A DNA stretch of 64,000 nucleotides from Chrysomallon squamiferum (lineage: Eukaryota; Animalia; Mollusca). Below the pieces are notes generated by a model. It was given only the letters and a program-made list of their open reading frames with translations, had not been told where the DNA came from and made no database searches. Position 1 is the stretch's first letter, and every line of letters begins with the position of its first letter. Made by a program: the position numbers and the translations under genes. Shown piece after piece: positions 42,297-58,590 of this stretch. The DNA lies in NCBI GenBank assembly GCA_012295275.1, contig CM022677.1, forward strand, positions 13,578,001 to 13,642,000. Reading direction: 5' to 3'.

Positions 42297-42623
42297 AAAA
42301 AGCCATATTTCCAGCAGCAGCAAACAACCACTATAAACAACACACGTACATCCAAAAACCCAGACAACAGGAGAGTAGGATTCGCCTTCATAGTCCAAGA
42401 TCACACAAACAAACCCACATGCATACAATTCGGCCGTATCACAAATCACCTTTCAGCATGCACGGCCGAATTCCAGCAGACCAGACCTACTCAGCAGAAT
42501 ACAACATCTACACGAGGACATACAACACAACAACAAACAACTAATCATCAAGTGGCTCCCAGCACATGTCAGCATCATCGGCAACGAACTTGCCGACCAT
42601 TACGCTAAAGAGTCACTCAGCAT
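42297..42623 (+). mobile_element. Non-LTR RNase H fragment (paralog of 22797-23133), truncated at the viral junction
   Basis: Encodes KQLIIKWLPAHVSIIGNELADHYAKESLS. Homology to the first copy stops at GAGTCACTCAGCAT. Confidence 0.85.
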
Positions 42624-42659
42624 ATTGTTCATTTGATTATTATCAGTTGTTGAATTAGG

Positions 42660-43025
42660 ATGTTCACAGCTTTGGGTATAATTGCTACTGAAATCATTGA
42701 ATTTGCGTTTGATACATCAGTGGAACTTGCTACATCAGCTATTACAGATTCTACCGCTCCAGCTATAGCCGAAATTGTCGGAGCTGACAGTGTATATCTA
42801 CCTCAAGCGACTGCTATCGGACAAAGTATAGTTGAATCTTCTGTAGAAGGCACTGCTAGCTATACTAAAACTCAAATAAACGACGCTTTGGATCAATTCA
42901 CTGATTTTGTGAATTCAAAAGATACAGCAGTAGATAATAACGTTTAATCTGAAGAACGAGAGGAATTGGAAACTGAAGAGGACGAATACGTATCATATAT
43001 GCATACTACTAGTCCAATTTCATGA
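42660..43025 (+). pseudogene. Viral small upstream ORF (~121 aa), genome 1; one premature stop at 42945
   Basis: MFTALGIIATEIIEFAFDTSVELATSAI...V*SEEREELETEEDEYVSYMHTTSPIS*. It is homologous to 48152-48515, and its TGA overlaps the capsid ATG (ATGA). Confidence 0.8.
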
Positions 43026-44664
43026 ATAAAGGGAAACGTATATTAAACAAGAAGGACGTTACCAGACTTTGGGCTATAGCTAAAGCTAAAGCATTTGATA
43101 TATTATCAGAGATAAATGTGCCGGTGGATCAGCGGTTACAAATTCGGCGTCAATATCCAAATTTACAGATTCCAAATCAAGATTTCTATTCGGCAATACA
43201 AAATATTCGGAACGAATATAACCATATTGAAGATCAAGACGAAGAGGACCCTTTTAATACGCCTATATACCCAGAAGACGAACAAGCATTAAAAGCATCA
43301 GAACAACAAGGCATGAAACGACAAAACATCAAACCTGGAGGAGGATCTAGCTCCAAAGTTCCTAATAATAATCAACTATCTACGAGGATATCACAAGATT
43401 TATTGGATCAATATAATTCCAAAGGAACGTATGTTCAACCTCAAGAGTCCGTAATGGAACCTGATTCTATCATGAACGAAGAGGTAACTGATACAGGTGG
43501 AAGTGAAGCCGTAGAAGGTGCTCCTATGGCCTCTGCTACAGGAAATAACGTTTTATACCAAGGATTTGGAGGTACAACGTCTGGAGCTAATCATTTAAAC
43601 GAACATTCACTAGTGAGATTAATTTCTCTAAACAAAGAAAACCTAGTATGTCAGTTATAGATAATGCAACAGATGCTTCAGCATGGAAAAATGCAATAGG
43701 TGATCCAAATGTGTGAATTTACATTCAATCATGGTGGTCACATTATACCTTATTGGTATAAAGCAGCTAGTACGAAGGCAGACGATTGGAATTTACCTGA
43801 TGAGGTTGTAGGCTATAAAATTAAAAAATTCGGATTTAATATAAATAATATGATAATACATGTTCCAAACGAAGTACCAGTAATGGCACCTCCAAATGCA
43901 CGAGTTTGGACATTTACAGATATTTATAATGATTATGGATTACCTGATAAACATTTGGACCTATCTCATAATAATCGATTAAAAGATGAAGAATGTATGG
44001 ACTGCTATCACTACCTATTTTAACCATCAGTACAGGAATGTACACTATTCAGCTTGTTATCAAAATAAAGCTGGTAAAGATTTAGGAGCACGATCGATGG
44101 CAGATGATGCTAGCACCAAACTAGGTAAAAGCGGTATATCTAGCAATGATTTAGATAATCCAAATGTGAACACGTGCATGGACGGTAAACACCGTCGTAC
44201 GTATCAGTGCAATAGACCTCCTATGTTCCTAATAGGTTTATACCCTGATGTAGAGAAAACTAGCAACGGAGCTACATTATTCTTTAATTACCATGCTAAC
44301 ATACAAATAACTTATTATAGCGAGGTGGAGTTTTTAGTCAGAACGGCAATGTGTCCAAAATACATACCTATAGGTTTGGGTGGATGTCCGTCAGGTAATG
44401 GCAGGACTCATTTTTAAATTGAACGATACTACAACTGTAGGAAATAAAGACAATGTGAAACATACAGAACAAGATCAATTCTTAGATGAAACTGTAAAAC
44501 AATATAAAGATCGAATCGAAAAAACATGGAAAATGAGAATATATGCCCCTATATGGGACAATTGGAATAAACGTAAAGCCAGACGACGATTTATCTGGCC
44601 AGTACACGGTGCTTATGGAGATAGAAGTGTACCTATTACAGGAGATTGGTCTTATCCAGTATAA
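43022..44664 (+). pseudogene. Parvovirus-like capsid (VP) gene, genome 1, frameshifted and internally deleted
   Basis: ORF fragments 43022, 43700, 43986 and 44380 are colinear with 48512-50479. Motifs include GGHIIPYWY, WTFTDIYNDYGLP, RPPMFLIG..QITYYSEVEF (reminiscent of parvoviral jelly-roll strands) and a basic C-terminal NKRKARRR. AATAAA follows at 44671. Confidence 0.75.
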
Positions 44665-44754
44665 AAACAAAAATAAATAAATGAAAATACTTTCTCATAG
44701 TTGCGTAAGAATACAGTTAAAAGTATGTTAATATTTACGTTCATTTAGTCACGT

Positions 44755-44806
44755 AACATTTATTACGTCATGTTTGTGACGTCATGTTCATAACGTTATA
44801 AATAAA
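44755..44806 (+). promoter_or_regulatory. Internal NS1 promoter, genome 1
   Basis: GTCACGTA, TTACGTCA and TGACGTCA (CRE/ATF-like), followed by TATAAATA at 44797. The same arrangement occurs at 50551-50608. Confidence 0.7.
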
Positions 44807-44912
44807 AGATCGTTCAGCGAAAAAATTACTCATTTGTTTGTTATCTGTTACATGAAATTGAATATTTTAAACAAACATATACATTTAATTTTGATTGTCA
44901 TCAGGATTAATA

Positions 44913-47012
44913 ATGGATAGATATGTTGAAACCGTTGGAGATAGTTATTATAGTGTGGTTATAGGACACACTAGTTACGACATGGTACACCTGAAATTTT
45001 TGGTACCCAGATCTCTAGCTAAAGACAAAGAAGGTAAATACGTTTACGCACCAGGCAAGAATTATATTAAAAGCTACCAGATGGATCAGCAAGACATATT
45101 AGACAAGACTGTGGATCATTGGGCCACGCCCAATTACGAATATCTGGCAAAAGGACAGGACAGAGTCGTGACAGAATTGAAATCCTTTATACGAAACAAG
45201 AACTGGAAGATACTATTAGTATATCATCAAAAAGATTGTCAAGTAGAAAGTAATTATCCTACTTATGGTTCTCACGTTCACATTATATGGAAAACTAACA
45301 TGAAGACCCCATCACAAGATAGACAATACAGACGACTCCATCGTGCAATTTTAAATGAAAAGGGATACATCAGGATTCGTAAATTGAAGGATCCACAATG
45401 TACATCTGTAGAAAACTACATGATGTATTTGATGAACGATTCAGAGAAGATGTATTTAGGAACAAATGACGAAAAGATGCTACACATTTGGAACGAAACA
45501 GAAAAATGTTCCAACGAGGAGGAAGAAGACTTAATGAACGTTCTGTTAGATTTTTTTGACGATCAACCAATAAAAGATAACAGTACAATTATTTCCGATA
45601 TCAAAGAGCCTGTGAGAAAGGAAGACGTCAATTCCAATAAGAGTACAACATCATCTCATGTCGTGAATCACGGCAAAGAAACATCTTCCGCAGCAGCTAA
45701 GATGGAGGAAGTGATGTTAGAAACTATACCTGAAGACAAAAACAGGATCAACTAGTTCCATCTCATCTGATAACGAACAAATCAGCTGATACATTTGACT
45801 TCTTTTATAAACTAATAGTTAAACATCCAGACGTGAACAAACTGAATTTTTTAATCAGCAAATATGACAGTAACAGTAACGAGTTTAAAGCTATATGTAG
45901 CTAACACATCAGGAGAAAAGCTATTCAAGGCTGCTAGATCGAAATACATGGAAGAGGAAGCAGACAAGAACGCATACGACCAGATTCTGTCATTATCGGA
46001 AAACATCGATAATTACATGACACCAGATAACAGTTTAAAAGTGTTCAACACCTGGTGTGTAGAACAATGCATTCCTGAACGATGGTTGTATGTGTTAATT
46101 GTTTCTGTTTTGAAAGGAAAAGGAAAAAAGAAAGTAGGATTGTACTTACAAGGAGAATCCGATTCCGGTAAAACAATGATATCGAGCAGTATGTTCGAAT
46201 GTCTTAACTGCGCCGGAAAAATAGCCAAGGATAATGTCCCCTGGCAGATGCTAGGTAACAAGAAGATTGTGCTAGGTGAAGAGATTTGTATCACGCAAAG
46301 TAATATAGACAAGTACAAAGATCTACTAAGCGGAAGCAAAGCCACTTGTGAGCGTAAAGGAACTACACCTACCTACTGTCGAGCTAATCTATGCATGATC
46401 AACTCTAACAACCCGTTTGGTCAGATCAGTATAATGAAAACCCGACTCTATTTTCTACAGGATTTAAAGAAAAGTGATACATTGAAGCAAGCCTATAATC
46501 TGATACATCCAGGATTATTCAAAATCGGTTTCAAACCTACAGAGGACGAAATGATGATAGCTTTGGAAAATGACAGGGAATATTTTAGACTAAAACATAA
46601 TAACAATATAAATGACAATACAGTCGACGGCAGGAATAGTTATTTCAGAGATAACTTTGATGACAGTCAGACAGTCAGCGAGCCTACAACACATATACTT
46701 TGCAATTCATCACCTAACAAAAGAAAATATATCGAGATATCGTCAGACGATGACGAACCAGAACAGGAAAATAAGTATTGTGCTTCGCAGGATCTCTTCA
46801 TACAGAGTCAGAAACGATTCAAAGGTGAATCTGATGAAAACAAAGGTAGTAAACGTGAATTAGAAGAAGAGGATGAAGTGGTGTCTCCCACACCGCCTTC
46901 AAATAACAAAACATTAAAGATGTACATACCGGAATCTCAACCGTTCTACGACGACTTCACAGAAACAATTCAAGAGACACAAATGGACATATTTAAACGT
47001 TATAAACAATAA
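44913..47012 (+). pseudogene. NS1: Parvoviral NS1/Rep (HUH endonuclease + SF3 helicase), genome 1, disrupted around 45750-45900
   Basis: HUH motif GSHVHIIW; Tyr motif ENYMMYLMN; Walker A GESDSGKT; Walker B KIVLGEE; B' YKDLLSGSKATCERKG; motif C CMINSNN. AATAAA at and just after the stop. Confidence 0.93.
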
Positions 47013-47314
47013 AAATAAACGTAATAATAAACATTAAAAGACATCAGTGCTGATTTATTGTTCTTACGTTGATATTAATGTTCATTAAAAGTTATTTCTT
47101 GAAATAAAATTATTTATTAAAATTAATTACCTTCGTTTAGTTAATTATTTAAATAAACTATTACTATCGTCTGCAATATAACGGAAATGACGTCATATAA
47201 AATAACTTCATTTAAAGAAACGGATATGACGTCATATCCATTTAAATTATATACTCTCTTCAAAATAAAAAATAGGGGTCGGGGGTGTGAAAATGCAAGA
47301 TATGATAGATTATC

Positions 47315-47758
47315 AACTCTACTCTTGTTATAGTAAAAAAAAAAAGTTCCTCACTACATGGCTTTTTAGCTTTTTGGCTTTTTAACCAAATGTACTTTTA
47401 ACCCGAAGGTGATAATGTTCCTTCGGGCGAAGCCAAAACCCGAAGGATCATAAGTTAAAAAAACAAAGTTCCCCATGATTGGCTTTTGGCTTTCGGCTTT
47501 TTAACCAAATGTACTTTTAACCCGAAGGTGATAATGTTCCTTCGAGCGAAGCCAAAACCCGAAGGATCATAAGTTAAAAAAACAAAGTTCCCCATGATTG
47601 GCTTTTGGCTTTTGGCTTTTCGACCAAATGTACTTTAATTTATGCTCCTTCGGGCGAAGCCTAAGCACCTTCGGGTTAAAAGTACTTTTGGTCAAAAAGC
47701 CAAAAGTCAGTAATGAAGATCTTTGTTTTTTTTACAAATCACAAGAGTTAGGTTGACA
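47315..47758. repeat. Right terminus of genome 1: two tandem half-hairpins (~120-bp period) plus one imperfect full hairpin
   Basis: AAAGTTCC..GGCTTTT..CCAAATGTACTTTTAACCCGAAGG.. units start near 47343, 47465 and 47584. The last one folds back (..AAAAGTACTTTTGGTCAAAAAGCCAAAAG). Confidence 0.88.
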
Positions 47759-48001
47759 ATTTCTACCTAACTCTTGTTTACTGTTAAAAAAACAAAGTCC
47801 CTCATTAACTGGATTTCTGGCTTTTTAGCTTTTTGACCACAATGTACTTTTAGCCCGAAGGTGATAACGTTCCTTCGGGCGTAGCCAGAACCCTTCGGAT
47901 CATAAGCTAAAAGTACATTGTGGTCAAAAAGCTAAAAAGCCAGAAATCCAGTTAATGAGGGACTTTGTTTTTTTAACAGTAAACAAGAGTTAGGTAGAAA
48001 T
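47759..48001. repeat. Left terminal hairpin of genome 2 (perfect 96-bp inverted arms, 51-nt structured loop)
   Basis: 47759-47854 is the exact reverse complement of 47906-48001. The loop holds CCGAAGG..CCTTCGG and GGC-GTA-GCC mini-stems. Confidence 0.95.
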
Positions 48002-48054
48002 CTATCAGGTCATGATTTAAACACCCAAACATTGCTTTTTTTTTTTTTTTAAGA

Positions 48055-48125
48055 GTATTACGTCATATCCGTACTGTCACGTGATATTATGTATATATTA
48101 CAATACATTTTACAATTATATCATT
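48055..48125 (+). promoter_or_regulatory. Left-end viral promoter, genome 2
   Basis: TTACGTCA (CRE-like), GTCACGTGA (E-box), TATATATT at ~48093 and TCATT (initiator-like) upstream of ATG 48152. Confidence 0.55.
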
Positions 48126-48151
48126 TGTGATCAAGTCATTCACTCGATAGG

Positions 48152-48515
48152 ATGTTCACAGCTTTAGGAATTATAGCAACAGAACTAATTGAATACGCCT
48201 TTGATGCTTCAGTGGAATTAGCTACATCTGCTATAATAGAATCTACAGCACCTGCTATTACTGATAGTAGGTGCTGACAGTTTATACCTAGAACCAGCTA
48301 CAGCTATTGGACAGTCGATAGTGGAATCGTCAGTTGAAGGTATTTCTACATTTACTAAGAATCAAATACAAGAAGCATTAAATCAATTTGGTGATTTAGT
48401 TAAATCGAGTGGAAAGGACATTGATACTAACGTTTCTAAGTCTGAACGAGACGACTTAGAACAGGAAGAGGACGAGTACGTAAGTTACGTATATAGAAAC
48501 AGTCCAGTTTCATGA
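48152..48515 (+). pseudogene. Viral small upstream ORF, genome 2 (one frameshift near 48265)
   Basis: MFTALGIIATELIEYAFDASVELATSAIIESTAPAI../..ESSVEGISTFTKNQIQEALNQFGDLV..EEDEYVSYVYRNSPVS*. Confidence 0.8.
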
Positions 48516-50479
48516 ATAAAGGAAAACATCTTCTGAATAAGAAGGAAGTGACACGACTTTGGGCAATAGCTAAATCTAAAGCATAGTCCATATTAGCAGA
48601 CTTAAACGTGCCGGTTGATGAGCGCCAAGATAGGTGGTTACAAATACGACGTCATTATCCAAATTTACAAATTCCTAATCAAAGTTTCTATCAGGCAATA
48701 TAAGATCTTCGGGAAAACCATTACAATCCTGAGAATTCGGACGAAGAAGACCCTTTCAATACACCTTTATACCCAGAAGACGAACAAATACAGGGTAGAC
48801 CACAGTCACAACCAAAACAAGCTATGAAGAGACAAAGAACTGAACCAGCAGGTGGATCAAGTTCGAAAGTTCCTAATAACAATCAATTATCAGATAGAAT
48901 ATCTCAAGATGTATTAGAACAATCTAATTCTAAAGGAACTTACCTTCAACCACAAGAGTCTGTAATGGAGCCTCATTCAATAATGAATGAAGAGGTGGCA
49001 GATACAGGTGGAAGTGAAGCTGTTGAAGGTGCTCCGATGGCCTCAGCTACAGGTAACAACGTTTTGTACCAAGGATTTGGAGGCACCACTAAAGCAGCTA
49101 ATCCACAATATATATAACTATTAAAAAGACATTCAAAAGAACATTTACAAGTGCAATAAATTTTACTAAGACTAGGAAAGCTACCATGAAAATATTAGAT
49201 AATGATACAGAAAATATTAATTGGAAAAAGGCTATAGGTGATCCTAATGTTTGTGAATTAACATTTAATCATGGAGGACATATTATACCGTATTGGTATA
49301 AGCAAGCTAGCACTAAACCTGATGATTGGAATTTACCAGATGAATTTGTTGGATATAAGATAAAAAAAATTGGATTTAATATAAATAATATGATAATACA
49401 TGTTTTAAATAATACTAAATCAGATCCAAACGAAGTACCTGTAATGGCACCTCCAAACGCACGCGTTTGGACGTTTACAGATATTTACAATGATTATGGA
49501 TTACCAGAAAAAAATCTAGATTTGTCACATAATAATAACTTTAAAGACGAAGAATGTATGGATACTACATCTCAAAGAAGCATACTGGTTCAACCAGATC
49601 GTAAACTATATGTACCTAGTGATATAGGTAAGCAATTGTTAAATAATGCTTGGAATGGTAATGGTGTATTATATCAAGCAGAAACACCTAATTATATTTA
49701 TGACATGAAAAAACATGATGGATACCGTGAAACAGTCATAAGTGCTGGAGGATTTGGATTGGATTATACTTGTAAAGATTCCCCATTAGTTATATTTCCA
49801 GGTGAATCTACTCAGACAATTAATTTCACACAAATGTCTGGGCTAACAAAAAAAGATAGATATCAATGTAGCAATGAAAATAAAAACAATCTAGAAGTGT
49901 GGCCAACACATGACATTTCAGTAACTAATGTATCAACACATCCCATGGGAACTGCAGTAGCTACATATTTTAATCATCAATACAGAAAGGTACATTATAC
50001 AGCTTGTTTCCAAAGCAATCCATCTAAAGTTTTGGGTGCTCAATCAATGGTAGATGATGGAGGTACTAAAATGGCTAAAGGTGGTGTAATGTCAAATGAT
50101 GCAAACGATCCGAACGTTGATACATGTACGGATGGTTCGCATGGACGAACGTTTCACTGTAACAGACCTAAGTATATACCAATAGGTTTAGGTGGATGTC
50201 CTGGCCCTATGCAAGGACTTACATTTAAAGATAACGACACAAAACCCATGGGAAATAAAGACAACGTAAAACATACTGAACAAGATCAGTTTTTAGATGA
50301 AAATATAAAACAATATAAAGAACGAATTCAAAAAACATGGACAATGAGAGTGTATGCCCCTGTATGGGATAATTGGAATAAACGTAAGGCTAGACGTCGA
50401 TTATTATGTACACGGTGCATATGGTGATAGAACGGTACCAATCACTGGTAATAGTACTGATTGGCCTTATCCAATATAA
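48512..50479 (+). pseudogene. Parvovirus-like capsid (VP) gene, genome 2
   Basis: Starts MNKGKHLLNKKEVTRLWAIAK. Includes fragment 48824-49117 and the 413-aa ORF 49186-50427, and ends ..WPYPI* at 50479 after a frameshift. Confidence 0.78.
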
Positions 50480-50550
50480 ACTTATGTAAATAGTTATTAT
50501 AGTTGCGTATGAATACAGTTAAAAGTCTTTTTAAACGTTAACGTTCATAT

Positions 50551-50608
50551 TGTCACGTACACATTATTACGTCACTTTCATGACGTCATGTTCAATTTGT
50601 TATAAATA
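50551..50608 (+). promoter_or_regulatory. Internal NS1 promoter, genome 2
   Basis: GTCACGTA, TTACGTCA and TGACGTCA, then TATAAATA at 50601. Confidence 0.7.
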
Positions 50609-50694
50609 AAGACGTTCGTTTTGAGAATTTGTCACTTGTTCGTTGTTCTTTCAACATTGACAAACACTTACAATCACCAATCGGATATAGAAGT

Positions 50695-52858
50695 ATGGAT
50701 AGATTATATCGAGTTGCCTGACGATCGCTATTATAGTGTAGTAATTGGACATTCATTGTACGATATGGTACACCCGAAGTACCTAGTTCCGAGATGCTTA
50801 GCGAAAGACAAAGACGGGAAATGTGTCTATGCTCAGGGAAATAATTTTATCAAGAGTTTCCAAATGGATCCACAGGATTTATTAGATAAACCTGTGGATC
50901 ACTGGGCCACGCCTAGTCACGAGTACCTGGCACGAGGACAAGACAGAGTGATAACAGAACTGAAGTCATTCTTGAGGAATAAGAATTGGAATAAGAATCA
51001 CCAAAAAGATTGCGAGGTGGATCAATCGTACCCAAGTTATGGATCGCACGTGCACATCATATGGCGAAACAACATGAAAACTCCGTCTCAAGATAGACAG
51101 TACAGACGTTTGCATAGAGCCATGTTAAACGAAAAGGGATATATAAAGATCAGAAAAGTAAAGCAGCCACAATCTACTTCGATAGAAAACTACATGTGTT
51201 ACCTTATGAATGATAACGAGAAGATGTACCTCGGTACTAATGATGACAGAATGCTGAAAATTGTGGATAAACGTTGAAAAACGTATTCATGAGGATAATG
51301 CAGAGATTTTAAATATTCTGAGTGATTTCTTTGACAACGATAACGTGTCAGTTGACGTAACTACGTCTAACATTAAAGAACCTGTACGAAAACAGAAAAT
51401 AAATATAAAAACAGAGGAAGTAATTCCACATACGTCAATCGCTCATGGTGCAGGAACTAGCTCTATTGATGCTAAGATTGAGAGTGACTTACTGAATGCC
51501 ATGATGGAAAAAAATACTGATAATACGAATACAACGAATAACGATAAGATACCAACACACCTATTGACAAATAAGTCTGCAGAAACACTAGACTTTTTTT
51601 ACAATTTAATTGTGAAATATCCGGATGTCACTAAACTTAACATGTTAATAAGCAAGTTCGATACATCATCGAATGAATTCAAAGCATTATGCAACTCCGT
51701 TGCCAACACATCGGGAGATAAACTGTTCAAAGCAGCTCGTTCGAAGTATTTAGAAGAGCAATCAGACAAGAACGCCTTCGAACAGATTAACGATTTCAGT
51801 GATAAATAGATCATTACATGACTCCAGAGGACAGCTTAAAAATCTTTAATAGTTGGTGTATTGAACAAGAGATACCCGAACGATGGCTATACTGTCTAAT
51901 AGTTGCACTACTTAAAGGAAAGGGAAAGAAAAAGGTTGGGTTGTACTTTCAAGGTGAATCGGACTCTGGAAAGACAATGTTATCAAGTTCCATGTTTGAG
52001 TGTCTGTCATGCGCAGGCAAGATTGCCAAGGATAACTTCCCATGGCAGATGCTCGGCAATAAAAAAGTAGTATTAGGTGAGGAAATTTCAATTAACTAGA
52101 CAAACATAGATAAGTATAAGGATTTGTTAAGTGGAAGCAAGGCAACGTGTGAGAGAAAAGGGACCAAGCCATCGTATTGTAGAGCCAATATCTGCATGTT
52201 AAATTCCAATAACAAATTTGGTGATGGACTAACAACGTCTCAGATAAGCATAATGAAGACTAGATTGTATTTAATACAAAATCTCAAGAAAAGTGAAGTA
52301 CTAAAACATTCCTATAACTTGATCCATCCAAAATTGTTTACTGTTGCATTTGAGCCATCAGATGATGAGATCAACATAGCTTTAGAAAATGATAGAGATT
52401 ATTTTATTCACAAAGGAAACAATAACATTAATGATAACACATTTGACGGAAGGAACATGTATTTTCATGATAATTTCGATGACAGCCAGTCAGTGTTAGG
52501 AACTCAAGACCCTATGATCAATTGCTTGCAAGAAGACAAAATAGAGTATATAACCATATCCAGTGACGAGGATGAGGAACATGCAAACAATTCATACAAT
52601 CCATCACAGGATCTATTTATTACATCACAAAAGGTTAATGACAGTCAAGATACACATTCAAAAAGAATTAAACGAAAACGTGATGAAGAAATTGATCCTA
52701 ATTATATAACAGTTGGCGAAGAACCAAACGAACCAGAAGAAAAACATTTCAAATTTTATGTACCAGAAACACAACCATTCCATGGAATGTTTACTCAAAC
52801 GATACTTGGAACACAGATGGATACATTCAATAAATTCAAAGCCGAAAATGACTCATAA
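50695..52858 (+). pseudogene. NS1: Parvoviral NS1/Rep, genome 2, split by stops and frameshifts
   Basis: Fragments 50621, 51261, 51818 and 52124 contain GSHVHIIW, ENYMCYLMN, GESDSGKT, DNFPWQ, KVVLGEE and CMLNSNN. Confidence 0.93.
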
Positions 52859-53083
52859 ATTTACAAACATTATGTGATAATTAATTAATGTTATATTGTT
52901 AGTAAATAAATATGTTATATTATTAATAAATATTTGTATTAAAAATATATTAAATAATTACTTAATTAAAATAAAATATGTTATAAACTTATTTATGTTT
53001 TTGTTATTTATTAACAAAAAATATTTTTAAAATATTTACCAATAACGTCTGCAATTAATAACGAATATGACGTCATATATATT

Positions 53084-53396
53084 AAAACAAAGTTCCCCAT
53101 GATTGGCTTTTGGCTTTTGGCTTTTTGACCAAATGTACTTTAATTTATGCTCCTTCGGGCGAAGCCTAAGCACCTTCGGGTTAAAAGTACTTTTGGTCAA
53201 AAAGCCAAAAGCCAGTAATGAAGATCTTTGTTTTTTTTTTACAAATCACAAGAGTTAGGTTGACAATATATCACGTCTTGTCTTTCACTCCCCCCACCCT
53301 ATATACTTTTTTTTATATTTTGAGATGACGTTATGTCACGTGACTATGCACCTTCGGGTGTTAAAGTACATTTGGTCAAAAAGCCAAAAGCCAGTC
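53084..53396. repeat. Right terminal hairpin of genome 2, plus inverted ITR sequence and a final hairpin fragment
   Basis: 53084-53267 is nearly identical to ~47578-47759. 53205-53322 resembles the reverse complement of 47260-47367. 53348-53396 repeats a hairpin half. Confidence 0.88.
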
Positions 53397-56026
53397 TGTT
53401 CAACTCTGTTATTTAAATAGGTCAACTGATTCCATTTTATGTTTTAACGATGTTTTATAGGGTACATTTTTACCAGAACTCTTGGTATTTATTTATTTTA
53501 AGTTTTGATTAGATTATTAAGTACAGTATTCTTTCAAAACAAAATTATTTAAAAATATAAAATTAAATTTAAAAAAAAATATCTCCCTTAAACCAAACAT
53601 TTTTTAATACGAAGTCTGTACTTTTATTTTAAGTCAGTAATAAAGGATTTCTGACACTAAATCATTTTAAAAAAGTAACTTCTTTTACCACAGACTTGCC
53701 TGTACTTGGTGCTGTGTCTGGTCCAAACGTTCAGTATACTGAATAAATCTGATCACATCTTTCATGAACAACATTGTAACTTTGAATCTAAATTCAGTAT
53801 CACAATATTATAAATTCTTCAATAAGAACAGTCCATGATTCACACAAGTAATGTTTTTAAAATGTTATTTTATCCAGTTATTCAGTTCTTTATATTTACT
53901 GTGGAGATGTTTTCTTCTTTTATTAGTTCATTCAGTTCCTTATAACTTAGAGGCAAACTTGTTTTTAGATTCAGTTTACATCAGTTCTTGTTAATAGCTT
54001 TCTGTGGTGACTGAAATATAAAATAGTACATTCAAACATTTTAACAAGACCCACTATAATTTTATATTTTATCATTTGAATCTGAAGAAATGTTTTCAAC
54101 CAATAATAAGTACAGTTAATTTAACTGAAATAAAATAGAGTTTAATTATATTTATTTAAACAGTCTTGTTGGACCTCTATTTTTCATTGTATATATATAT
54201 TTTTTTTTTTTCTTTCTTAAAGCAGTAACTTCCATTTTACTTTTAATTAAGTACATAAATTAATATATTTTATAAAAATTGACAACAAGTAAGATCAGTA
54301 ATATTTATCTGTTAATTTTTGAACATACATTTTCTAAAGTACAGTCCTTTTCTCCCAACTGCTGTATCAATGTCACGTTTTGTCTTTTTCTTTGCATCTA
54401 CAGATACCATTATTTAAAAAAAGAAAATTATATATAATAATAATATTAAAATATTCTCATATGGCATTAAATGATTTATATTTTACAGTTTATAAAATCT
54501 AGTTGTAAACTGAATTACCTTTCCATTATACTCAGCATTTGGTTACAAAACATTGAACTCATCTGAATTTCTGAGTTTGTACAAATTTCTTTTAACACCA
54601 CGAACTGGAGAAGTGATTGTTCTTCACTGAATTGTACTACAAGCCTGGTCATGTGGTCATCCTTGGCCTGATAGAACTTGTTGTGGTCAGCAAGGGCTTG
54701 TTTATCCTGTAAAAGTAGTAAACAAAACTTATCCTGATAACCCTAATAAATAAAATTGATTTACTTAAAAACTATAACATTTATCATTGGAAATGATAGC
54801 AAATTTTTATTTAAAAGTTACTTGAAGTATTAAAAATTACAAATTATTTAGTCATAATAAATACATTTTACATCTTATATCATCATTAAGATATCTCTTG
54901 AAAATTATCTGCTTGTCTGTTATTTTTTTAAAAATACAGAAGTTTATAATTTTTAGTGTTCATAACCAGCAAGTTTCTTCAGTTTTGTGTCAAACTTTAT
55001 AATTAACAAGATTGTTCACCATAAATAAACAAAATAATATTTTGGATGCCTTTTTTTCTTGGATTTTAATAATAAAGAGTTAATTTTTTTATTTTTTTTT
55101 TTTAATTTCCAAAACATAGGATGTTGTATATAAGATTTTTGTTAATAATAACTTTTCTGTTTTACTTTTTTTCTTATGCAATATTAGTTTAATTATATCT
55201 TTGAAAAACAGCAGTTTCAAGCCTTTTGTCTGTAGTTTCAAGCCTTTTGTCTGCCCGGACAACATGGGGACAATGTGAGAATTCTGTCACATGAACTGAC
55301 ATGATCAACATCGTGGACAACATGGACTGCAGTGGAAGTTCAGTCATCTTAAATATAACACAGAAGTACATGAGTTATTAAAACTTATAACATACATATA
55401 TATGATTAATAGTTTGTTAAATTTTTAATTTATCAGTATTTAAATTGATAAATGTTTTAATTACAACTAGTTTTAATAAATAAAAATCTGAAATGATCCC
55501 AGAGCTCACTCTATCCTTAAAACATTACCCTGTTTCCAATTCCACACTGAGTTCCATTCATAATTTATCTTGTATTGTGTCTGTGCCGCGTCTTAAACCA
55601 TCATTAATTTCTACAGATTTTGGAATAATTTTTTTAAAGAAATAAACAGTTTTATAAACTTTCAAATTCTAAATGAAAATTAGGATTATGTAATATCAGG
55701 TTTTAATTTTTGATCTTTTTTTTAAACATTTACAGTGTTTAAAGTTAAATTCTGTTAATTTATGTATAATAAAAATAATAATAAATAAATAATTAGTAAA
55801 ATAATAGGTCTGTTTCAATAGCTATTATATCGGTGAGAAACGTGATTTATAAATATTTTTTTAGCTGCTTTTCCTAATTATTTTCTTTCCTTATTTTATT
55901 TTATTTTATTTTATTTTCTAGTCAAATTGGTTATCAAGTATTTTATTTCACAGTGGTTAATCACTGGAATAAAGTGAGAGAGAAAACTGTAAACTATGAA
56001 TTAAACTGACTGCTGTGTTTTCTGTA

Positions 56027-56220: not shown

Positions 56221-56599
56221 CTGGCTCCATTATAAAAGAAATTGAAATGTGTCTTCCTGTCCATGTGTACACAAGTAATTAAACATTTCAGACAGAAAAT
56301 CAGTGAATCTAGAAAACACAACAGATTTAGATAATTAAACCATTCAACACAATCTGCAAATACTTCTGTTTTTCAGGTCAAAAGGATATTTTCTAAGCCA
56401 TTCTAAGACAGTATTTATTAATTATAATTGTATTTATGTTTGTAGAGAGGAAGGAATGTGATGATATTTCTTCTAGATAAGATGAACAGCAAACAGTCTC
56501 TTGATGTGTTTGAGTTGATGTTGAAGAACTGGACATTCATCGCCAACAAATGAAGTAAGAACTTTTTAATGTTACAAACAAAATAAATACTAGAAAACA

Positions 56600-58590
56600 T
56601 AAAGTCATGTTTAAGACATTTTCTTTGCCTCTTGAAGATGGCTGCAGCACTGTGAAATCCATGGCTACAATCTCATGAGGTCTAATAACAATACGATGTC
56701 CCAAAGGTAGTTTCAGTTTGAGTTGTGGCAGTTCTGCCACCATACACCTTTCACACTCTTTACACCACTTGTTCCACATCTTTGTGCACTGCAAGCCAGC
56801 AACAACTTCTTCTAATAAGACTCATTCTTCTTTCAAAACCCTGGTGTCCTGTCTGATTGTGTAAACTCTACAGAACTTTCTTCTTCATCATTCCTGGTAG
56901 TACAGTCTGCTTCATTCTTCCCAAGTTGGGGTCCTTTACTTTTCTGTAAAGTGCTTTGTTTTCACGAAATAATCTGTCCCACTGCCAGATTACTGTGAAG
57001 AAACCTGATTCTTCTAATCTTCTCTCAGCTCTGCATGGTAGCCATGTAATACAGCAATCTCCTTATTAACTTGTCTTTTGCCTGCATCACTGCTAGTTCT
57101 GGTAAAGCTGGGAGATGATGTTGTGGCTTCCATAGTTTCATTAAATTGTTCCACTGCAACAGTTTATTGTGTGTTTTCTTCCACCACAATTTTATAACTT
57201 GTTTCATTGTCTGTGGAACTTCTGTACTACTAGCAGTATCTCTAAAGCAGCTTCCACTGAAGTAGACATCATTCCATGAAATTTCTTCCTGGATAGACCA
57301 TCAGTATTCTTATTGTGTTGAATGATATTTCACATCAAAATCAAATTCTACCAGCTGAGACCCCCATGTTTCTTCCACTGCCAATTTCAGACCAACAAGC
57401 TCTAACTTCATGGAACTGTAATTATTCATGTTTCTCTCAGTGGGTCTCAAGCTCTTTCTAGCAAATGCAATTTTTTTCCTTTGCCCATTCTGCTCCTGTG
57501 ACAGTACTGTTCCCACAACTCTCAACCCAAGTACCCTTTAACAGTGCTTGATATTTGATTTTTGAGTAACTAAGAATCCTTTAACATATCATCTGAAGTA
57601 ACTGGCAAACTGCAAAAATGACACCAGGCCCTTTGGTGTTTTTGGAACCTACCATTCAAGAACAGCCTTTATTTTGTCTGGATCTGTAACTACCCCATCT
57701 CTAGACATCACGTCCTAGATATTTCACTTCTTTCTTAAGGAAACAGCGTTTGCTTGGTTTTAGTTTGAGCCCATGCTGTTTTAAAATGTTAAATACCTCT
57801 TCTAATTTATCTATGCACACAAAAAAAAAGAACACTGAAATATCTGCTCTGTAAAGCAATGCTGCATAAGTCTTTGAAATGTGGCCGGTGCTCCTGATAA
57901 ACCAAACAGCATATGATTGTATTTAAACAAACCCATTGGAGTGATGAATGCAGTTTTGTCTTTGTTTTTATCCTCAACTGCAATTTGGTTGTATTCACTG
58001 GCCATATCCATATAGTGAACCAGTTTGCTCTGTGCAAAGCATCTAATGACTTCTATTGTAGGTAGTGGAAAGCAGTCTTTCCTAGTTTTAGCATTCAGCC
58101 ACCTGTAGTCCACACACAGATGAATTGTGTTGTCTGTTTTTCTCACTATAACAATAGGAGATGAATATGGGCTGTGGCTGGGTCAAATTGCATCTTGTTT
58201 TATAAGTTTCTTGATCAGCTTCTTGACTTCCTGATACTGACTGTGTGAAATTCTTCTGTATGGTTGTGACACTGGTATGTTATCAGTTGTGCATATGTGA
58301 TATTTTACAGAGTCAGTAAACCCCAAATCAAGGTTATCTTTAGCAAATACATCAGTTAAATATTCTCTTTAACATCAGAGTATTTGTTCAGTATTCTTTT
58401 TAACTTTTTCTTCTGCTCATCAGAAATATCAACTTGAAATCTATCAAACTCTGTGTATACTAACTGTAATCTGCTCCATGCAAACTTCTTCTCCTTGTCC
58501 TTTATTGACTGAGGCTCTTCTACTTCTACCACTGATGACAAAACACCCACTTTAGTTCTTGGTTTCAACCCTATTTTACAACACAAATCT
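56600..58590 (-). mobile_element. Degenerate Ty3/Gypsy LTR retrotransposon pol (RT-RNase H-integrase)
   Basis: RT: LCVDYRWLNAKTRKDCFPLP and KTAFITPMGLFKY..FGLSGAPATFQRLM. RNase H: GTVLSQEQNG..IAFARKSLRPTERN..YSSMKLEL. Integrase: CKECERC..PHEIVAMDF. Domain order is RT-RH-INT; many stops; no LTRs seen. Confidence 0.93.

Follow-up and report, generated by a model that had tools for sequence, protein, structure and literature searches.

The locus at 42.62-53.40 kb of a 64,000-nt stretch of the Chrysomallon squamiferum genome (contig CM022677.1, positions 13,578,001 to 13,642,000, hereafter the window) holds two decayed parvovirus-like genomes in tandem. In both, a gene for a capsid protein (VP) lies upstream of the gene for the non-structural (NS) protein NS1 on the same strand, and terminal hairpins lie only outside this coding block. 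We read the two units as likely germ-line fossils of an unclassified capsid-first parvovirus lineage whose gene order is already present in free viruses, and put the probability of this reading at roughly 85%. Parvoviruses have linear single-stranded DNA genomes that replicate by a rolling-hairpin mechanism, with NS1 nicking at the termini. An earlier reading of the locus made from its letters alone (the sequence-only reading) held that monosense parvoviruses usually carry NS on the left and VP on the right; the available part of a 2024 review agrees, giving this arrangement for all parvoviruses, and reviews of the family treat it as universal (PMC11357303).

The window is AT-rich (GC 0.31), with abundant microsatellites and retroelement debris, in keeping with an animal, probably invertebrate, genome, and the locus itself has a GC content of 0.35-0.36. 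Its two homologous units are 69-74% alike in coding DNA and share one plus-strand order, in which a small open reading frame (ORF) precedes VP, a spacer of ~230 nt separates VP from NS1, and NS1 is followed by poly(A) signals and then a terminal repeat. The position of a VP-like gene upstream of NS1 on one strand in both units, as first described in the sequence-only reading, was thereby confirmed. Stops, frameshifts or deletions break all genes in both units. From hairpin to hairpin, unit 2 spans 47759-53267 (~5.5 kb). The adjacency of NS1 and a hairpin is preserved twice, and that of a hairpin and VP only once because the left end of unit 1 was lost at the junction with a long interspersed nuclear element (LINE). 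The parts of the locus are as follows, with the strand given where one is assigned.

42394..42636 (+): host flank, the RNase H end of a high-copy LINE-like repeat, truncated at the left junction of the element (Pfam RNase_H, E 9e-5; contig depth; contig from RNA run X5)
42660..43023 (+): unit 1 small ORF, ~120 codons, acidic, stop-broken in the assembly, 3´ end overlapping the VP start
43022..44664 (+): unit 1 VP pseudogene with stops, frameshifts and a ~125-codon deletion (tblastn with the homologue P0005)
44665..44912 (+): unit 1 VP-NS1 spacer, with AATAAA past the VP stop, then CRE-like sites and a TATA box (predicted NS1 promoter), without a hairpin
44913..47012 (+): unit 1 NS1 pseudogene, HUH-motif nuclease region followed by superfamily 3 (SF3) helicase, frameshifted (PF01057; alignment with P0002-P0004)
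47013..47308 (+): downstream end of unit 1, comprising poly(A) signals, an AT-rich tract and the inner portion of the right terminal repeat, which carries TGACGTCA twice
47309..47762: hairpin block after rearrangement, holding one full hairpin besides two incomplete copies
47759..48001: hairpin at the left terminus of unit 2, its 96-bp stem perfect and its 51-nt loop branched
48002..48151 (+): unit 2 leader, predicted from its sequence to be the promoter for the small ORF/VP cassette
48152..48515 (+): unit 2 small ORF, frameshifted, its stop overlapping the VP start codon
48512..50479 (+): unit 2 VP pseudogene, with a 441-codon stretch open (51% identity to P0005)
50480..50694 (+): unit 2 VP-NS1 spacer, CRE-like sites and TATA box, without a hairpin
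50695..52858 (+): unit 2 NS1 pseudogene, with frameshifts and one stop within the helicase (PF01057)
52859..53083 (+): downstream end of unit 2, comprising poly(A) signals, an AT-rich tract and a shortened copy of the inner terminal repeat that bears TGACGTCA
53084..53267: hairpin on the right, matching 47579-47762 at 98% identity
53268..53396: part of the inner terminal repeat in inverted orientation together with a hairpin-arm fragment, and the junction to AT-rich host DNA

VP had no match among Pfam and PDB sequences and was identified by structure prediction only, using P0005, a natural intact protein of 690 aa that is 42-66% identical to the main VP pieces of the window. Unit 1 VP aligned with P0005 in three pieces (43-66% identity by tblastn) and unit 2 VP over 480 columns. 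An AlphaFold2 model of P0005 built with 34 relatives reached a predicted template modelling score (pTM) of 0.56, with core blocks mostly at a per-residue confidence (pLDDT) of 80-95. The top Foldseek matches of this model were parvovirus capsids in the PDB (E 3e-10), with matches in BFVD as well, and VIA aligned 270 residues to the capsid of Bombyx mori densovirus 1 (Z 15.2, root-mean-square deviation 4.1). Because the P0005 model matches parvovirus capsids, the upstream ORF is predicted to encode a parvovirus jelly-roll capsid protein, the fold being modelled on this homologue and not on the broken gene of the window. Structure prediction had been proposed as a check in the sequence-only reading, which named the lack of a jelly roll as grounds for abandoning it; the fold was found.

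The downstream gene was recognized directly. Pfam Parvo_NS1 (PF01057) matched unit 1 at E 3.7e-7 (29.9 bits, above the curated cut-off of 20) and unit 2 at E 3.7e-4 (20 bits, at the cut-off), and the SF3 helicase domain expected of Parvoviridae is present. In the N-terminal part, an HxH motif and a downstream conserved Tyr occur in both units and in P0002-P0004. Relatives of NS1 comprise P0002 (53%), P0003 and P0004 (35%), and P0094-P0097. The closest solved structures to P0002 were Rep40/68 of adeno-associated virus (AAV), a weak match, while the top BFVD matches of its model were parvovirus NS1 proteins, the best being a 1,093-aa protein of "Parvoviridae sp." (25%, E 4e-33; the next at 2e-16). 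Identity to the classified NS1 proteins listed in BFVD, which holds cluster representatives and may leave some genera unlisted, was 10-16%.

We also compared the folding of the hairpins and spacers with that of shuffled sequences. The left hairpin (47759-48001) had a z of -26.3 and the right hairpin (53084-53267) a z of -7.0, with 0 of 200 shuffles folding as well in either case; the VP-NS1 spacers folded no better than shuffles (z -0.24 for unit 1 and +1.13 for unit 2). Across the whole window, blastn with both hairpins gave matches at 47309-48001 and 53084-53395 only. Palindromic hairpins flanking the coding region, a Parvoviridae trait, are thus present here, and both tests uphold the claim that they lie only outside it. 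Each spacer carries one TGACGTCA followed by a TATA-like box, TATAAATA, in agreement with the earlier description of a CRE/TATA spacer, a predicted promoter, lacking a palindrome. There are five copies of TGACGTCA in the 10.8-kb locus versus one in the remaining 53 kb.

Differences between the units were counted codon by codon in open fragments, using pairwise local alignments. For VP, 374 codons gave a ratio of nonsynonymous to synonymous rates (dN/dS) of 0.15, with 65/39/144 differences at the three codon positions. For NS1, 553 codons gave a proportion of synonymous differences of 0.83 (saturated) and of nonsynonymous differences of 0.20, with 133/88/323 differences by codon position. The two VP-NS1 spacers align with each other over ~200 nt. 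These patterns indicate that purifying selection acted while the units diverged, when they were still working viruses, and that both received the VP-spacer-NS1 junction from a common ancestor. Given this purifying divergence and the homologous spacer, the order is likely viral and not an integration scramble, as the sequence-only reading had argued; the low VP ratio, the shared spacer and the lack of spacer hairpins all support that view.

The hairpins themselves have been rearranged. In the block at 47309..47762 the incomplete copies form a 119-nt tandem repeat (96% alike), and the loop of the full hairpin resembles the reverse complement of these copies, in a flip/flop-like manner. A 184-nt hairpin stands at both ends of unit 2 as a direct repeat (47579-47762 and 53084-53267, 98%), and the right hairpin of unit 2 is only ~70% like its left one. 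Since it is 98% like the hairpin that ends unit 1, the right end of unit 2 is likely recombinant. The ~5.5-kb unit at 47759-53267, complete in the sequence-only reading, is thus best seen as a recombinant that borrowed its right end, and this leaves the gene order unaffected. Set against the 69-74% likeness of the coding DNA, the 184-nt direct repeat suggests insertion via recombination between termini. The 96-bp stem has no mismatch although it sits beside broken genes; this could reflect a young insertion, repair from one arm to the other, or an artefact of assembly.

Such rearrangement, with its tandem 119-nt copy, mixed orientations and shared 184-nt hairpin, would also be expected if a standard NS-VP parvovirus had been circularly permuted or scrambled at integration, the array being a host duplication of that event. 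A head-to-tail NS-VP concatemer predicts hairpins between VP and the next NS1, though, and none is there. The 26-31% difference in coding DNA with its strong third-position bias is unlike a neutral host duplication, the spacer is homologous in both units, and the order has a printed precedent (PMC9001828). We regard this explanation as largely refuted and highly unlikely.

The precedent consists of two goose-cloaca genomes, for which Shan et al. (2022) reported in one sentence a structural ORF upstream of the non-structural ORF (PMC9001828). These genomes, MT138329 (7,244 nt) and MT138334 (7,497 nt), came from bar-headed goose swabs, and their host was left open. They resemble the units described here in having the structural ORF before the NS ORF and an extra ORF, and differ in their size of 7.2-7.5 kb and in a further major ORF, for which a transglutaminase-like domain is reported. 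A unit of the locus measures ~5.5 kb, its acidic ORF is 120 codons long and its NS1 ~700 aa, and it has neither a length above 7 kb nor such a major ORF. The available part of that paper does not mention hairpins or terminal repeats. The suggestion in the sequence-only reading of a possibly undescribed lineage is therefore not supported as worded: the order was printed in 2022 for MT138329 and MT138334, and the capsid protein QKE54994.1 ("Parvoviridae sp.") is homologous to the window VP.

From accession order and size, QKE54994.1 very probably belongs to MT138329 or MT138334, likely the former. Anchors in the parts of other papers at hand connect QKE54950 with the strain filed as MT138302, QKE54964 with MT138314 and, likely, QKE54986 with MT138323, and identify QKE54992 as a bar-headed goose virus capsid; by these anchors, QKE54994 belongs in the goose series. 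If both come from one virus, coding for a 734-aa VP and the 1,093-aa NS1 takes 5,487 nt, for which MT138331-MT138333, goose genomes of 4.7-4.9 kb, are too small. In the main texts searched, QKE54994 and the goose strain names were absent and MT138329 and MT138334 appeared in PMC9001828 only. No second treatment of the goose genomes was found in the literature searched, outside which lie subscription journals, proposals to the International Committee on Taxonomy of Viruses, figures and bioRxiv supplements.

A search with P0005 against 1.84 billion representatives of 50%-identity clusters gave 57 matches at E<=0.001. The 20 looked up were 19 unnamed Logan proteins and QKE54994.1, which aligned to P0005 at 27% (E 4e-47) and to the window VP at 36% over 207 columns. 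For the 19 Logan matches 39 records were listed; contigs of 6.0-7.5 kb account for 20 of them, with no record on a longer contig, a ceiling that fits the 7,244 and 7,497 nt of the goose genomes. In a quick, unrooted VP tree drawn with no outgroup and leaving out P0017 and partial matches, the window VP and P0005 share a long branch of their own, outside the 20-row clade that contains QKE54994.1. An Atlas search with P0027 returned capsid clusters at 0.87, a lead only. The fossils, the goose genomes and at least 57 capsid clusters may well represent one widespread lineage at the level of a subfamily, probably of invertebrates, with a capsid-first monosense genome and swapped early and late promoter positions, in which phospholipase A2 (PLA2) is replaced by a small amphipathic protein or an N-terminal helical domain; we lean towards this wider view.

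Another possibility is a bipartite virus like the Acheta domesticus segmented densovirus, whose two segments, one for VP and one for NS, became linked at integration or earlier. Bipartite parvoviruses exist (PMC13426907), each cassette here has its own predicted promoter with CRE-like sites also near the termini, and three distant NS1 relatives lie on contigs of 2.6-4.4 kb. Neither spacer retains a hairpin remnant, however, and the same junction is found in two viruses that diverged under selection. The 20 of 39 capsid-bearing Logan records on 6.0-7.5 kb contigs leave room for both genes, and the goose genomes are single records of more than 7 kb. Joined segments thus appear very unlikely, and a single genome with the capsid gene first remains the preferred explanation.

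Sequencing runs provided further views of the locus, although one of them may be the source of the window itself. Words of unit 2 were found in five runs from two studies, all labelled as one organism, with more than half of them present in three runs and a share of 0.08 in the RNA run X5. When contigs were mapped over unit 1 and the hairpin block, unit 1 was covered in all four runs mapped (two studies). A contig from run X2 (44427-46039, 23 differences) crosses the VP end, spacer and NS1, a contig from X3 also crosses the spacer, and a contig from X5 (42541-43302) crosses the LINE junction. In 3/3 DNA runs, contigs were ~12-20x as deep over the LINE flank as over the part of the element next to it. 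A 332-nt deletion in the unit 1 helicase (46039-46370) was seen in 4/4 runs, alongside the undeleted form in three DNA runs, showing that the locus is polymorphic and still decaying. We also noted that the small ORF/VP part of unit 1 (42617-44500) had ~1.5-3x the contig depth of NS1 (44900-47200) in 3/3 DNA runs, a weak hint of a further junction-plus-VP copy elsewhere in the genome.

The same data bear on whether the locus might be a host-propagated mobile element or a domesticated parvovirus-derived locus instead of a plain fossil. The perfect left stem, the RNA-run contigs over unit 1 and the existence of another assembly with several sister-capsid copies, one of them intact, and with NS1 on contigs of the same size for two, would fit such an origin. 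In that assembly (P0001, P0005-P0016, P0094-P0097), the copies of the sister virus lie on contigs of 8-452 kb, and VP and NS1 matches both occur on contigs of 8,418 and 60,905 nt; tandem endogenization may be recurrent in the branch of the window VP and P0005. On the other side, every element gene in the window is broken, the helicase deletion occurs in all four runs beside the undeleted form in the three DNA runs, and no target-site duplication was seen at the locus flanks. Run X5 gave no evidence of transcription, as its contigs also cover the host flank and may be DNA. A mobile or domesticated locus is the least probable of the alternatives considered, and we retain the interpretation of decaying viral fossils.

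As far as tested, the locus has the helicase, predicted capsid fold and termini of Parvoviridae and fits the layout of no classified subfamily. It shares with the classified monosense groups (Parvovirinae, Hamavirinae, Penbrevirinae, Hepanvirinae, Metallovirinae and Iteradensovirus) an NS1 with HUH motif and SF3 helicase, a predicted jelly-roll capsid, terminal hairpins, a size of 5-6 kb and a single coding strand. In contrast to them, with NS on the left and VP on the right (PMC11357303), neither unit has the layout of the six classified subfamilies, the NS1 proteins listed are only 10-16% identical, where at least 35-40% would be expected with a classified member, and the capsid matches no Pfam family. 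The ambisense Densovirinae are similar in their related hairpins at both ends and in a VP promoter (predicted here) beside the terminus, but here NS1 lies on the same strand as VP, pointing outward from a predicted internal promoter. One possible route to the capsid-first layout would start from an ambisense ancestor whose NS cassette became inverted.

The available portion of a 2026 paper describes six subfamilies and a megaparvovirus group whose capsid gene still follows NS1 (PMC13426907). This group of Swazi bat megaparvovirus and beetle endogenous viral elements is likewise unclassified and likely homotelomeric; it too has extra ORFs ahead of NS1, and its full-length endogenous copies served for host inference. 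It differs in its order of PLA2 ORF, unknown ORF, NS1 and VP (PMC13426907). We rejected the idea that the upstream ORF here is a megaparvovirus non-capsid ORF, given its predicted capsid fold and the lack of an ORF after NS1. A circular virus of the CRESS type was also rejected, given the long branched terminal hairpins and the parvovirus-type NS1 and VP. The portions of PMC9896142, PMC6631224 and PMC12297876 examined contain no capsid-first layout, and a classified genus with this exact layout, which the sequence-only reading had listed as a finding that would overturn it, was found nowhere in the parts of the literature examined.

The PLA2 motif that most Parvovirinae and Densovirinae carry in VP1 was not detected here: HDxxY is absent from the three plus-strand frames of either VP region, and Pfam PLA2 from the ORFs of the window and from P0005. 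Only 1/32 capsid sequences scanned had a Pfam PLA2 domain, the distant relative P0049, in which it is N-terminal and sits ahead of a region with the motif W[GA]x[AT]K. This motif occurs near the N-terminus in 38/54 long capsid sequences (cluster members included), and residues 10-60 of P0005, which hold the region, form confident helices in the AlphaFold2 model. The N-terminal helical region of P0005 and its relatives may be a folded VP-unique domain.

The small ORF is conserved between the units (65% amino acid identity over 57 codons, dN/dS 0.22). It matched no Pfam family and nothing better than E 0.01 among the fetched proteins, and its Atlas matches, at 0.81 or below, are noise. In the window (42660-42947), it begins mildly hydrophobic and continues as an amphipathic, acidic body, a composition that we take to resemble the N-terminus of polyomavirus VP2, with no such Pfam match. 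The product may be a membrane-active minor protein.

We envision a virus whose linear single-stranded genome, bearing related hairpins at both ends, would have replicated by the rolling-hairpin mechanism with NS1 as nickase and helicase. Its genes would form two separate same-strand cassettes: a promoter next to the left hairpin would serve the small ORF and VP, and the CRE/TATA promoter inside the spacer would serve NS1, an arrangement that would swap the usual positions of early and late promoters. NS1 bound at the origin could then activate the capsid promoter. The array likely arose when replication intermediates of two related viruses recombined via their similar hairpins and joined repeat-rich host DNA, either together or one into the terminus of the other, with decay following.

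Several points weigh against the reading of capsid-first viral fossils. Local alignments favour conserved stretches, which lowers the dN/dS values somewhat. The predicted nuclease fold of P0002 is weak: its VIA Z of 6.0 to the AAV Rep nuclease is level with the 5.8 reached by unrelated folds. A left terminus survives in one unit only, the right terminus of unit 2 appears to be borrowed, and no canonical AATAAA directly follows the unit 2 VP stop. The promoters, poly(A) use and early/late swap are predictions from anatomy. The link between QKE54994.1 and MT138329 derives from accession order and length arithmetic and not from a GenBank record, and the 6.0-7.5 kb ceiling is a hint only, as Logan contigs are often short anyway. 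Scans of IMG/VR viral contigs with the window VP, P0005, P0027 and alignments A2, A4, A5 and A6 confirmed 0 loci. In the Joint Genome Institute (JGI) metagenomes, 1/118 pattern matches was confirmed, and its contig of 1,011 nt is too short to show gene order, so that the IMG/VR and JGI scans gave no relative in which the order could be read directly.

The capsid-first order was already known from the one-sentence precedent (PMC9001828). As far as our searches reach, novelty lies in the endogenous copies, the hairpin termini, the compact 5.5-kb branch and how broad the unnamed family is. Germ-line copies tie capsid-first viruses to an animal lineage and the preserved hairpins fix the genome ends; the locus thereby adds an animal host link and terminal hairpins, both missing from the available part of PMC9001828. 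The order persisted in two members as they diverged under selection. Should the family of 57 clusters share the layout, it would be a candidate new subfamily, and a capsid-first family would offer a natural test of the role of an origin-adjacent NS promoter in the early-late switch.

With respect to the host DNA, the right flank (53400-54200) is AT-rich, and the LINE found on the left is not resumed there. Given these unmatched flanks and the lack of a target-site duplication, host DNA was likely lost at or after insertion. Further downstream, at 56537-58182 on the minus strand, lies a decayed remnant of a retrotransposon pol gene (Pfam RVT_1, E 9e-10).

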